Below, in pieces: positions 1,399-4,110 of a DNA stretch of 4,110 nucleotides; the stretch's first letter is position 1, and every line of letters begins with the position of its first letter. The notes below the pieces were generated by a model that saw only the letters and a program-made list of their open reading frames with translations, searched no databases and was not told the DNA's origin. The position numbers and the translations under genes were made by a program. This stretch comes from Escherichia coli (GTDB lineage: Bacteria; Pseudomonadota; Gammaproteobacteria; Enterobacterales; Enterobacteriaceae): the NCBI RefSeq assembly GCF_013315695.1, contig NZ_CP054359.1; one strand, 5' to 3'.

Positions 1399-3558
1399 TC
1401 ACTGTGACCAACCGCGATCGTGCCTCCTCTCGGTGGCGTGTGTTCGTGCATCTTCCTCGCGCCGCCATTCGTCCCAGGTACGATTAAAACCCAGCGAGCG
1501 GAACAGATGATCCGGCTGTTTTTCTGGTGTATTGACGGCAGCAAAAAGCGGTGCCTCACGGGTTTTCAGATGAAACTCCATAAGTTCCGGTGCAGGTGAT
1601 ATGTGGCTGTCTGCATCGTGATTGACGGCAACACCATACCCTGCATACCGTAACCCCTTGTCCGTCAGCGCACTGATGACCAGATGCCTGTTATCGGCTG
1701 AGGGAACGGCAAACGCGGGATACAGCGTGCCATTAAGCCGGACAACGCCGCCCAGAGAGTCATCCACGCCCATGACCAGCAAAAGCTGAAGCTGGCGGGT
1801 TTCCCGGTCGACAGAACTCATTACCGGCATCAGCGTCGGTGGCAGACGTCCCTGCGTAAAATCCACCTTCCTTGCTGCCAGTGATGGCATGGCTGGCTGG
1901 CGGTCTTCTCCAAGACAGAAAAACTCCGGCCATGTCTTCGGCTGGCGGAGATTGCGGGTATGTTGTGGCCATGTCTGGCAAACCTGCGTCAGCAGTTGCT
2001 CAAAGGTCGCAGAGGAATAAACACGTTGCAGTGGTGGATGTTGACCGATTTCGCTTCGGTCACAGATATAACCACTCCTGTCACGCATTAAATCAACACG
2101 CTCAAAGATTCTGGTGCGGTATTTCTCCAGCTCGTTCCCCCAGAGCGTATATTCTCCGTTCCGGTTGTGAAGCAGAAGGTAACTGGTCATTTCCCCGTTA
2201 CCAGGCATGGGGGCCTCGCCATACCCCGTAACGACTGCTCTCAGTACCCCTGAATCCATAACGGCATTGTCATTTTTCCTGAGCTGCTCCGCTCGTCGCT
2301 CCGCGCGACTACGTTCTGTATCCTCCAGCTCCTTCCGGCGCAATTCCTCTTCACGTTTAAGCAACTGGGCTCTGAGAGCTGCAAGGCCGGATGCCCCCCA
2401 CTGCTGCCACTGTGTTTCAAATTCCGTCTGACTCGCGGGAATGTCCTGTTTCTCCACCTTCCGGTAATGCTGTCGCAATTTTTCCATTTGCTGGCTCAGA
2501 GACTGAATTTTTCCCTGCTCACTACGGTATTCCGGTGCAGCCCATTGCATCAGGGGAATACGGGAAAAACCGGACGAAAACGGCGATGATTTTTTCAGGC
2601 TGGCAGCATGGCTCATCGCTTCCTTTCGTTCGGTGTTCAGCTCTTCCCAGCGTCTGCGCGTCGCCTGCATATCTGTCATCATCGACATGGCATTACTGGT
2701 GAGTTTCCATGCCGCGTTACTGTCCTTCGGCAACGCTTCGATGATGTCACGTAGTGTGTACGAAGTTGCGTTGTCAGGAAGCTCAATATTCAGAAGGTCA
2801 GCCACACGGCGGGCAGGCTCTGTCAGCCCGCTGTTCCTGAGTTCGGTACGGAAAATCTGTATTTCCAGGCTAAGCCTGTTAATCAGACGATTCTGTTCGC
2901 CGCGTTCTGTTTCGATACCGCGTGTTTCCATCGCACAGGCAGACTTTCCGAGGTGAATACCAGGCGTTTTCTCAAGCCCCTGTCGCTCGTATGAACGATG
3001 GTCTATCTCTTCCTGATAACCGGCGTTCGCCAGTGCCCTGTTTGCATGGTCAGCCCATGATGCCCGCCACGTCTCGGCATGTGTCCGGTCGTTCCAGTCC
3101 CTGACCTTTCCACCGAACCCCGCAGGTCCGACAGCCCTCGTGGTCAGCATGATGTGCGCATGGGGATTTGTTTTATCCATGTGATGGAACGCCACATCAG
3201 CAATCATGCCCTGACTGACAAAGTTTTCTCTGACAAAGGCGAGAACGGTTTCCCGTGCGGCATCCTGCGGCAGTTCACGGGGGATGGCGAGTTCAATTTC
3301 CCGCGCAAGTTGTGAGTTCTTCCGACGTTCGGCCTTCTCAACGGCATTCCAGAGTTCGGTACGGTTCGTACACCAGGCAGGGGCGGTGGCGGGGGACAGA
3401 ATCACAGCCTCAGCCACACCGCTTTTGCGGGTGTAGTCGTGAGTCAGTCCGGTACGCTCATCAAGCATTAGTGAACCGGAACGATAGGCAGCAGAAGCAA
3501 CGGCGCTGTAGCCGTTGCTTCTGGAGATGATTTTCATGCTGAGATGATAAATCGCCAT
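1399..3558 (-). CDS. mobA: MOBQ-type mobilization relaxase MobA with C-terminal RepB'-like primase domain (relaxase-primase fusion), 719 aa from the conserved MAIYHL start
   Basis: The N-terminus MAIYHLSMKIISRSNGYSAVASAAY closely matches RSF1010/R1162 MobA (MAIYHLTAKTGSRSGGQSARAKADY), including the catalytic Tyr25 (codon 3484-3486). Histidine-triad metal-binding motif HHMDKTNPHAHIML and conserved WADHANRAL...IDHRS...GLE..PGIHLG are present. A central E/R/Q-rich predicted coiled-coil follows. C-terminal motifs ERVDLMRD, LLLVMGVDDSL and HLFRSLGFNRT resemble RSF1010 RepB' primase segments (ERFDIGVRD, LVLVDDLSEF, HYGRLAGFTNRK) as I recall them. Start chosen at ATG 3558 rather than the ORF-track start at 3663. 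Approximate domains: relaxase 2886..3558, linker 2181..2885, primase-like 1399..2180. Confidence 0.85.
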   Translation of the reverse strand: MAIYHLSMKIISRSNGYSAVASAAYRSGSLMLDERTGLTHDYTRKSGVAEAVILSPATAPAWCTNRTELWNAVEKAERRKNSQLAREIELAIPRELPQDAARETVLAFVRENFVSQGMIADVAFHHMDKTNPHAHIMLTTRAVGPAGFGGKVRDWNDRTHAETWRASWADHANRALANAGYQEEIDHRSYERQGLEKTPGIHLGKSACAMETRGIETERGEQNRLINRLSLEIQIFRTELRNSGLTEPARRVADLLNIELPDNATSYTLRDIIEALPKDSNAAWKLTSNAMSMMTDMQATRRRWEELNTERKEAMSHAASLKKSSPFSSGFSRIPLMQWAAPEYRSEQGKIQSLSQQMEKLRQHYRKVEKQDIPASQTEFETQWQQWGASGLAALRAQLLKREEELRRKELEDTERSRAERRAEQLRKNDNAVMDSGVLRAVVTGYGEAPMPGNGEMTSYLLLHNRNGEYTLWGNELEKYRTRIFERVDLMRDRSGYICDRSEIGQHPPLQRVYSSATFEQLLTQVCQTWPQHTRNLRQPKTWPEFFCLGEDRQPAMPSLAARKVDFTQGRLPPTLMPVMSSVDRETRQLQLLLVMGVDDSLGGVVRLNGTLYPAFAVPSADNRHLVISALTDKGLRYAGYGVAVNHDADSHISPAPELMEFHLKTREAPLFAAVNTPEKQPDHLFRSLGFNRTWDEWRREEDARTHATERRHDRGWSQ

Positions 3559-3602
3559 TTCTGCCGTAATGCCTTTTTGCAGTTTTCTTTCAGCCCCGCA
3601 GG

Positions 3603-3650
3603 GCGCACACAATCGAACCGAAGGTGAGATTGTATAAGTGCGCACTTCGT
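3603..3650 (+). other. Candidate origin of transfer (oriT), IncQ/MOBQ-like: imperfect inverted repeat with GAA loop followed by nic-core TAAGTGCGC
   Basis: Imperfect inverted repeat ACAATC-GA-ACC / GGT-GA-GATTGT (3609-3633) with a central GAA loop, followed 2 nt later by the 12-bp perfect palindrome AAGTGCGCACTT (3636-3647). TAAGTGCGC (3635-3643) matches the RSF1010 nic-region core GTAAGTGCG^CCCT. Sits between divergent mobA and mobC, on the strand antisense to mobA as in RSF1010. Predicted nic after G3642 on the + strand. Confidence 0.6.
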
Positions 3651-3699
3651 GATTTCTGCGCATTATGCCAGCTCAGTTTTTAAACTACCAGTGACGAGC

Positions 3700-3705
3700 T
3701 AAAAT
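3700..3705 (+). promoter_or_regulatory. Candidate -10 element (TAAAAT) of the mobC promoter
   Basis: 5/6 match to TATAAT, 30 bp upstream of the mobC ATG. The upstream -35 is poor (T-rich, around 3677-3682). GGAG Shine-Dalgarno at 3725-3728, 7 nt before the ATG. Confidence 0.3.
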
Positions 3706-3735
3706 GCGATTTTTCACCGCGCACGGAGTTACATC

Positions 3736-4026
3736 ATGAGCAGAACACTCGAACAGAAAATTGCCGAAGCTGAAGCCAGATTGCAGCGTCTGAAGGCAAA
3801 GAGCCGGAGCCTGGACACAGCGCAGAAGGTCGTTGTAGGTGCTGCATTGCTGGCAAAGGTCAGAAAGCCGGAGGAGGTGCAATTGCGCGCCTGGTTACTC
3901 CAGTTCCTGAAGGCAGAGGTGACACGGCAGGCTGATGTGAGCAGGATACAGCCGTTGATTGACGAACTGAACGCGTTGCCAAAACCCGTCCCCAAAGGCG
4001 TGTCAAAAAACGGCCAGCAGGCGTGA
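3736..4026 (+). CDS. mobC: Mobilization accessory protein MobC-like (relaxosome component), 96 aa
   Basis: Complete ORF, ATG to TGA (4024-4026), with a good RBS. Small protein with an N-terminal charged helix (AEAEARLQRLKAKSR) and the motif KVVVGAALLAKV, resembling RSF1010 MobC (about 94 aa, ...RKVLVGAMILAKV...). Divergent from mobA across the oriT, which is the IncQ arrangement. Confidence 0.7.
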   Translation: MSRTLEQKIAEAEARLQRLKAKSRSLDTAQKVVVGAALLAKVRKPEEVQLRAWLLQFLKAEVTRQADVSRIQPLIDELNALPKPVPKGVSKNGQQA

Positions 4027-4110
4027 ATGCACCATCCGCTCGCCGCAGCCCCAGCGACCGAGCGTTAGCGAGCGAGTGGGCGAGGAAGCGGAAAAGCTGC
4101 TGCACCAAAA

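Follow-up and report, generated by a model that had tools for sequence, protein, structure and literature searches.

A probable MOBQ4 nick region with a 12-bp palindrome in the transfer origin of the Escherichia coli plasmid p.E166-P5

The closest described counterparts of the locus studied here are the transfer origins (oriTs) of MOBQ4 plasmids, for which oriT function, a stimulating but non-essential MobC and a relaxase that prefers to act in cis have all been shown. The identity of this oriT is already known, its function having been defined experimentally in 2019 for near-identical plasmids. The 178-bp intergenic region of pE2022_4, cloned in either orientation in a non-mobilizable vector, was mobilized in the presence of the Mob proteins and R64drd11, and the intergenic region of a ColE9-J-like plasmid likewise mobilizes a vector (PMC6856555). 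Mobilization of the cloned pE2022_4 region was at least 500-fold below that of a plasmid with mobA in cis, deletion of mobC lowered transfer but did not abolish it, and splitting of the fragment at nt 70/71 gave no transfer (PMC6856555). The cis preference of MOBQ4 relaxases contrasts with RSF1010 MobA, which works well in trans (PMC6856555). Neither this paper nor its preprint contains the terms 'palindrom', 'inverted repeat' or 'hairpin' or gives a nick position, and we found no mapping of a MOBQ4 nick in the later literature searched.

Other characterized members of the wider family provide the frame in which the site can be read. In RSF1010 the nick lies in CAGTTTCTCGAAGAGAAACCGGTAAGTGCG/CCCTCCC, a 6-bp stem is enough for MobA and the base of the hairpin stem is the part that matters (PMC4814116), while the published MOBQ consensus is NWACCNNTAAGTGCGCCCTYNN. 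The oriT of pIP501, which with pSK41-pLW1043 represents the Gram-positive conjugative plasmids with TraA and NES relaxases, has been described with nested inverted repeats (IR-1/IR-2) whose left halves bind the relaxase, and its TraA cleaves at 5'-GpC-3' and autoregulates at a promoter that overlaps oriT. The Mob proteins of RSF1010 are autoregulatory as well.

The plasmid, its mobilization genes and the intergenic region

The window (the whole stretch of DNA that was analysed, 4110 bp) is the complete circular E. coli plasmid p.E166-P5 (NZ_CP032071.1), to which it gives a 100% full-length match rotated by 545 bp. It also matches about 600 plasmid records, chiefly of about 4.07-4.09 kb from E. 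coli, Salmonella and Shigella and typed as MOBQ mobilizable, including pE2022_4, pSF-468-4, pMG828-2, pEC542_4 and pEC224_7, all five of which have been classed as MOBQ41 (Garcillan-Barcia et al. 2019, PMC6856555). The features of the plasmid that bear on transfer are as follows.

448-1149, + strand: Rep_3 (PF01051) initiator gene (Rep3_N 1.2e-35, Rep3_C 9.6e-21)
1399-3558, - strand: mobA, MOBQ4 relaxase, 719 aa, with the annotated start MAIYHL at the ATG at 3558
3559-3735: mobA-mobC intergenic region, 177 bp, the homologue of the tested 178-bp oriT fragment of pE2022_4
3585-3652, + strand: conserved oriT module, 68 bp, common to ~2-kb plasmids without mob genes
3736-4026, + strand: mobC, relaxase accessory protein, 96 aa, divergent from mobA and adjoining oriT

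The replicon carries four exact 18-bp iterons and is thus of the Rep_3 iteron type found in MOBQ4/MOBQ41, and by sequence p.E166-P5 is a MOBQ4 plasmid of subgroup MOBQ41. Its replicon DNA is only 55-80% identical to that of pE2022_4, and its mob module is 94-100% identical per 100 bp. MobA matches the NCBIfam MobQ equivalog with 263 bits (cut-off 200) and Pfam MobA_MobL at 1.7e-70, is 97% identical to MobA of pE2022_4 and contains Y25, E87, E89, H125, H133 and H135, the catalytic residues named for these relaxases (PMC6856555). Its closest solved structure is that of NES (4HT4, 1.6e-28) followed by R1162 MobA (2NS6, 1.7e-11), and it is 34% identical to MobA of RSF1010 and 27% to that of pSC101. 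The mobC product, annotated in the record as hypothetical, has no Pfam or NCBIfam match; it is 93% identical to MobC of pE2022_4 and 36% to MobC of RSF1010 (E 3e-7). A search of the entire plasmid against Rfam gave no match.

Aligned with the intergenic region of pE2022_4, that of the window shows 11 substitutions and one indel (3580, 3581, 3618, 3620, 3621, 3624, 3625, 3652, 3657, 3659, 3697 and 3717); the two regions share the palindrome, the base of the hairpin and both outer arms described below. The differences are absent from 3626-3651, leaving hairpin base, spacer and palindrome untouched, and the inner part of the hairpin with its loop reads ACC-GAA-GGT in the window against AAC-AGA-GTG in pE2022_4. 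The split at nt 70/71 that gave no transfer corresponds in the window either to 3628/3629, inside the hairpin, or to 3665/3666, 23 nt beyond the predicted nick. The oriTs of pE2022_4, pIGWZ12, pMG828-2 and ColE9-J belong to the same family as that of the window. With positions 3560-3735 as query, BLAST matches in ColpVC and Col(MP18) plasmids span query positions 26-93; these ~2-kb plasmids are orphan-oriT plasmids that MOB-suite types as mobilizable with no relaxase given. The oriT module occurs in 573 of 5426 complete E. coli genomes and is plasmid-borne in 696 of 701 places.

A preliminary description, made from the letters of the stretch, had proposed an oriT of MOBQ type at this place, and the proposal is borne out, as the homologous region of pE2022_4, with a MobA of 97% identity and the same palindrome, mobilizes a vector (PMC6856555). 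We put at about 85% the probability that the site is the nick region of a MOBQ4 (MOBQ41) transfer origin in which the palindrome is a by-product.

Hairpin, nick core and predicted strand

The oriT is placed 51-89 nt ahead of the start codon of mobA, and its putative recognition and cleavage elements comprise the following.

3609-3633, + strand: inner hairpin ACAATC-GA-ACC/GAA/GGT-GA-GATTGT, proposed from a repeat search and covariation as the relaxase recognition hairpin
3635-3642, + strand: nick core TAAGTGCG, 8 nt that end at the predicted nick and are the same as those before the mapped nick of RSF1010
3642-3643, + strand: predicted nic, GpC (G3642/C3643), by homology

Read 5' to 3' the window has the hairpin, A, TAAGTGCG and CACTT, and because the RSF1010 site is homologous to this arrangement the nick is predicted between G3642 and C3643 on the + strand, 9 nt past the stem. 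TAAGTGCG is unique in the plasmid, its single copy lying at 3635-3642 on the + strand, and comparison with the MOBQ form TAAGTGCG/CCCT(Y) gives agreement at 8/8 bases 5' and 4/5 bases 3' of the nick. RSF1010/R1162 (MOBQ1) has, like the window, a hairpin with a GAA loop, TAAGTGCG, a nick at GpC, a place between mobA and mobC, which diverge, and a core that points away from mobA; it differs in having one nucleotide fewer between hairpin and core and CCCTCC rather than CACTTC 3' of the nick. In pSC101 the resemblance takes in GGGCGCAC, a hairpin with a tandem GA/GA mismatch and a GAA loop, TAAGTGCG and the same gene layout, whereas the bases past the nick are the canonical CCCT. The NES-type locus of S. 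aureus reads hairpin-ATAAGTGCGCCCTTAC, with the spacer of the window and a core that differs by one base (C at nick+2, not A).

The orientation of the core is constant among these loci. In the window mobA starts at 3558 on the - strand and the core starts at 3635 on the + strand, so that core and relaxase gene are on opposite strands and the core points away from the gene, and the same holds across the 9 compared lineages, among them pSC101, an RSF1010-type IncQ1 plasmid (which stood for RSF1010, having an identical oriT) and loci from Gloeothece, Priestia, Acidiphilium, Acinetobacter, Klebsiella and S. aureus. The relaxases of the last six are 34-52% identical to that of the window and their cores lie 66-150 nt upstream. 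Alignment with known MOBQ oriTs, the check put forward in the preliminary description, thus finds layout and orientation in agreement with pSC101, RSF1010 and seven MOBQ loci that are more distant. The T at -8 is invariant on the + strand in 15/15 aligned sequences; the equivalent base on the minus strand is G or A.

The inverted repeat that had been noted at 3609-3633 is real, lies immediately 5' of the core and consists of two 11-nt arms (3609-3619 and 3623-3633) that are complementary at 9/11 positions around a GAA loop. Among relatives 5 of its 9 pairs have changed on both sides and 86% of cells are paired, and the covariation score is matched by 0/500 shuffles; sliding the partner by 1-3 columns lowers pairing to 15-45%. 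The stem takes the forms ACAATC/GATTGT in MOBQ41/42, ACAAAC/GTTTGT in pMG828-2 and ColpVC and TTTCT/AGAAA in pSC101. With these compensatory changes the adjacent repeat is supported as the likely determinant of strand, as had been suggested, and the choice of strand is likely best explained by the hairpin on the 5' side. The + strand as the one that is nicked is supported by the orientation of the core, the covariation of the hairpin and the geometry of the minus-strand copy; for the window, where exactly the nick falls, on which strand, and which side enters first are inferred.

The palindrome places a second copy of the core on the other strand, and the preliminary description had allowed for nicking on either. 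The dyad shows AAGTGCG/C on both strands, and on such a reading cuts would be made at 3642/3643 on the + strand and/or at 3641/3640 on the minus strand, with transfer in either direction; we consider this very unlikely. As had been claimed, the core is present on both strands, the identity extending over 7 nt on the 5' side of the nick and 5 nt on the 3' side; the hairpin is predicted to form on either strand with similar energy (-14.9 vs -14.1 kcal/mol), and TrwC and RP4 TraI do cleave reverse substrates, in which the hairpin lies 3' of the nick (PMC4814116). RSF1010 MobA, the nearest relaxase tested (34% identical), however gave no cleavage or 1.4% on reverse substrates and left RQ(8+28) uncleaved (PMC4814116). 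The minus strand reads GAAGTGCG from 3648, fold prediction finds no hairpin 5' of its core, and 7 nt separate the would-be nick from the hairpin on its 3' side, which is the nick-to-hairpin spacing of RQ(8+28). On this geometry nicking on either strand is not supported. Nicks on both strands 2 bp apart would moreover amount to a double-strand break and therefore linearize the plasmid, the distinction at the -8 base sets the + cores apart from the minus copies, and the non-palindromic relatives (pSC101, RSF1010, Priestia, Acinetobacter, the NES type and the Klebsiella sister family) have the core on one strand only and in constant orientation. Natural variants among relatives break the + core in two cases (L013, L015) and the minus core in two (L009, L017) and favour neither strand.

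A different minus-strand site has also to be weighed, namely the upstream copy in which the hairpin is followed directly by GTGCG/CCCT (3608 down to 3600), a 9/9 match to the canonical RSF1010/pSC101 core. The minus strand has GTGCGCCCT from 3608 and pSC101 has the same, but the TAA spacer is absent and the nick would lie 5 nt from the hairpin rather than 8-9 nt. Nor is the CCCT conserved, the minus strand of MOBQ42/ColpVC reading GTGCGGTC or GTGCGATC, and the orientation would be opposite to that of every characterized relative, all of which makes a nick at this place extremely improbable.

With nicking on the + strand, the preferred reading, MobA would recognize the base of the hairpin (3609-3633) and the following ATAAGTGCG, helped by a MobC that is not strictly required, and would cut the GpC between 3642 and 3643 while staying joined through Tyr25 to the 5' end at C3643. 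The coupling protein and type IV secretion system of a helper plasmid, MPF-I plasmids (R64) serving best, would then export the cut strand 5' to 3', so that the mobC side would enter the recipient first and mobA last. Once the hairpin and TAAGTGCG are back as single-stranded DNA the relaxase would rejoin the ends. The minus-strand copy, being without a 5' hairpin, would go unused.

The 12-bp palindrome

The palindrome itself, together with a candidate promoter element near it, is placed as follows.

3636-3647: perfect palindrome AAGTGCGCACTT, its own reverse complement, containing most of the nick core and lying 3' of the hairpin
3662-3670, - strand: candidate extended -10 for mobA (TGgCATAAT), read by eye, weak, conserved in MOBQ4 relatives

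Palindromes of at least 12 bp in 4.1 kb arise with a mean of 1.04 in dinucleotide shuffles, 63% of which contain one or more, and as shuffles yield about one per 4.1 kb the palindrome alone is insignificant. Its position is not due to chance; the plasmid's only such palindrome overlaps the sole TAAGTGCG, 8-9 nt past the hairpin and between the divergent MOBQ relaxase gene and mobC. It is kept in 13/16 relatives picked from an evenly spaced listing of 671 matching plasmid records. A literature search with the exact palindrome string gave as its sole match an unrelated primer.

Comparison with other lineages indicates how such a dyad may come about. The palindrome is one base (A3644) away from the consensus form AAGTGCGCCCTT, the MOBQ consensus TAAGTGCGCCCTY having C at nick+2 where the palindrome has A. 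With Y = T, AAGTGCGCCCTT already makes 5/6 dyad pairs, and it is present in the Priestia, Acinetobacter and S. aureus NES-type loci. Positions +2 and +3 from the nick are variable among relatives (CCCTT, CACTT, CCATT, CATTA). All MOBQ41 and MOBQ42 plasmids that were sampled carry the perfect palindrome, as do most of the ~2-kb ColpVC/Col(MP18) plasmids, and it recurs in Acidiphilium multivorum pACMV6, the relaxase of which is 47% identical. A sister family of ~4-kb Klebsiella/Enterobacter/Citrobacter plasmids lacks it, having AAGTGGGCATTA in the same layout and sharing the upstream AGCCCCGCAGGGC with the window. The perfect dyad is thus most likely, judging from these comparisons, a variant that readily arises from a motif so close to self-complementarity and not selected in itself; as a by-product of a MOBQ core that is nearly its own complement, it would be completed by the single C-to-A change at nick+2.

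The self-complementarity of AAGTGCGCACTT at 3636-3647 is as the preliminary description had it, and so is the contrast with the RSF1010-type site GGTAAGTGCGCCCTCCCC, which is not palindromic and makes 4/6 dyad pairs against 6/6 in the window; pSC101 likewise has a local dyad of 4/6. The distinctiveness that was attached to the palindrome holds only in part. The dyad is indeed perfect, but it is one substitution off the consensus, is family-wide, occurs in pACMV6 as well and is absent from the sister family. A cruciform from the 12-bp palindrome alone, with a 4-bp A/T-rich stem and a GCGC loop, was considered and would probably be too unstable.

The position of the oriT between divergent genes suggests another role for the palindrome, which might have been selected, besides nicking, for the binding of a protein dimer, formed by MobC, by MobA or by a host factor, that would regulate the divergent mobA and mobC promoters. 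Operators are typically palindromic, and the pIP501 precedent for autoregulation at oriT would fit such a role. The ColpVC/Col(MP18) orphan plasmids, however, retain the palindrome without mob genes, so that regulation of these genes leaves its conservation unexplained, and in the sister family, alike in layout and upstream sequence, the form is non-palindromic. Nor did any sigma-70 promoter pass a strict scan of 3480-3800. By eye, the extended -10 at 3662-3670 would weakly suggest that the oriT lies inside the mobA leader, and on the other side mobC has a TAAAAT ahead of it at 3700-3705 and a GGAG at 7 nt from its ATG. Autoregulation of the mob genes by the relaxase, which had been raised for this site, would be an analogy with known systems only, and a dimer site as the reason for the palindrome appears improbable. 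A by-product of the nick core remains the reading we prefer.

The outer inverted repeat

A further pairing, in which the nick core itself takes part, flanks the hairpin.

3597-3608, + strand: left arm of the outer repeat, CGCAGGGCGCAC, with the core GCGCAC at 3603-3608, complementary to the nick core
3638-3649, + strand: right arm of the outer repeat, GTGCGCACTTCG, with the nick inside, from repeat search and folding

The arms form 10/12 pairs around the core GCGCAC/GTGCGC, and the nested fold is predicted on both single strands (-14.9 and -14.1 kcal/mol as above) with z about -2.8. An outermost third pairing (3597-3601 with 3656-3660) was dropped as it is not kept in relatives. In pSC101 too the nick core and an arm upstream of it form an outer repeat, there with 9 perfect pairs. 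The equivalent arm abuts the hairpin there and also in MOBQ42, pACMV6, Priestia and Acinetobacter (5 pairs each) and in the NES type, where the pairing is only 4 bp; the four 5-pair arms end exactly at the predicted nick. RSF1010 has no adjacent outer arm complementary to its nick core.

In the Klebsiella/Citrobacter sister family the nick core reads GTGGGC and the upstream arm GCCCAC or GCCCAT, a change of G-C to C-G that leaves the position paired in all cells. As this represents one evolutionary event, and 101/500 shuffles do equally well, the compensatory change is suggestive only. Taken with the distribution of the arm it suggests that the conserved unit may be the outer repeat, through which nick core and upstream arm pair, rather than the local dyad. 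The idea of a nested outer repeat is not new in kind, since IR-1/IR-2 of pIP501 have been described.

It might be, though the chance seems slim, that the relevant unit is a two-tier fold in which GTGCG/C is paired with the upstream arm and the nick sits at or just inside the end of the outer stem, the minus strand of MOBQ41 then being a natural reverse substrate. If this were true, the preference for cis, which is 500-fold or more, could have its basis in a MOBQ4 relaxase that cleaves or binds both arms or strands, as could a second round of processing. To a mechanistic role of dyad and outer repeat tied to the cis preference of the relaxase we accord a small residual chance.

About a tenth of complete E. 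coli genomes contain this oriT family, and what the analysis adds to it is descriptive: a predicted nick at 3642/3643, a 68-bp module delimited by orphan-oriT plasmids, a dyad that is one mutation off the consensus and missing in the sister family, and an outer repeat across many MOBQ lineages. Specific targets for mutation are thereby supplied for the mapping of the MOBQ4 nick and for the study of relaxase action in cis.

The outer stem is predicted to hold the nick in single-stranded DNA, and the RSF1010 model leaves such a stem unaccounted for. The change seen in the outer arm of the sister family fits pairing and symmetric recognition of both arms by a protein alike.

Palindrome and inverted repeats at the predicted nick

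The perfect 12-bp palindrome that spans the predicted nick in the E. coli plasmid, AAGTGCGCACTT, recurs unchanged in pACMV6 of Acidiphilium multivorum (positions 374-385). pACMV6 comes from an alphaproteobacterium, its relaxase shares just 47% identity with that of the window, and the hairpin lying 5' of its palindrome differs from ours (GCATTGCC-GCA-GGCAATGC). With one palindrome beside a different hairpin and so diverged a relaxase, the variant must be either ancient or have arisen more than once.

The arm directly 5' of the recognition hairpin (3597-3608) pairs with 3638-3649, which includes the nick core GTGCG|C, forming an outer inverted repeat around the hairpin. An outer repeat of this kind was also noted in the following loci:

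L018, 4072-4117
L021, 360-405, minus strand
L029
L030

This outer repeat is common to the pSC101, MOBQ4, Acidiphilium, Priestia, Acinetobacter and S. aureus NES-type origins, whereas the RSF1010 origin is without it. In a Klebsiella/Citrobacter sister family both arms differ in what appears to be a compensatory change, from GCGCAC/GTGCGC to GCCCAC/GTGGGC.

Within the inner hairpin a tandem GA/GA mismatch is formed by 3615-3616 with 3626-3627, as also in the hairpins of pSC101 and pMG828-2, and positions 3620-3622 form a GAA triloop; a GAA (or GNA) triloop with a closing C-G pair is present in most lineages, RSF1010 included. Both elements are stable in DNA hairpins.

Orphan origins and possible scars

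The 68-bp oriT module (3585-3652) was matched in six ColpVC/Col(MP18) plasmids of approximately 2-2.7 kb (L010-L014 and L016), which carry no mob gene at all ('orphan oriT') and are typed as mobilizable by MOB-suite. Such plasmids are somewhat surprising, given that MOBQ4 relaxases are reported to favour an oriT in cis by at least 500-fold (PMC6856555).

One of these, L016 (CP077277.1), contains at 197-214 a tandem duplication, CACTTCGTG CACTTCGTG, starting at the predicted nick to within 1 nt. The IncF plasmid L017 (CP057369.1, 3047-3053) retains a remnant of the oriT, flanked by IS26 and ISKpn26, with AC inserted immediately 3' of GCGCAC. The duplication and the insertion may be scars left when the nick was processed aberrantly, or both may simply be due to slippage.

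Mosaic structure, replicon and mobC

The plasmid is a mosaic: measured per 100 bp against the MOBQ41 plasmid pE2022_4, its mob module shows 94-100% identity, whereas the replicon half (1-1400 and 3900-4110) reaches only 55-80%. MOB-suite gives its record no replicon cluster, typical MOBQ41 plasmids being assigned to rep_cluster_1778, and the plasmid probably represents a separate incompatibility variant. The presumed replication origin comprises:

61-69, 157-165 and 353-361, three DnaA-box matches, that at 353 a perfect TTATCCACA
186-225, direct repeats of GATCTTGTTTTTAA, upstream of the iterons
268-350, iterons, four exact 18-bp copies of GGTGAACATTTCGGGGGT spaced by 21-23 bp

The origin of pIGWZ12 has been described with such an arrangement.

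In the plasmid record mobC (3736-4026) is labelled 'hypothetical protein', and its product had no match in Pfam or NCBIfam profile searches. Relatives carry the name MobC on an 84-aa version; the window product has 96 aa and differs from theirs in its C-terminal tail beyond residue 82.
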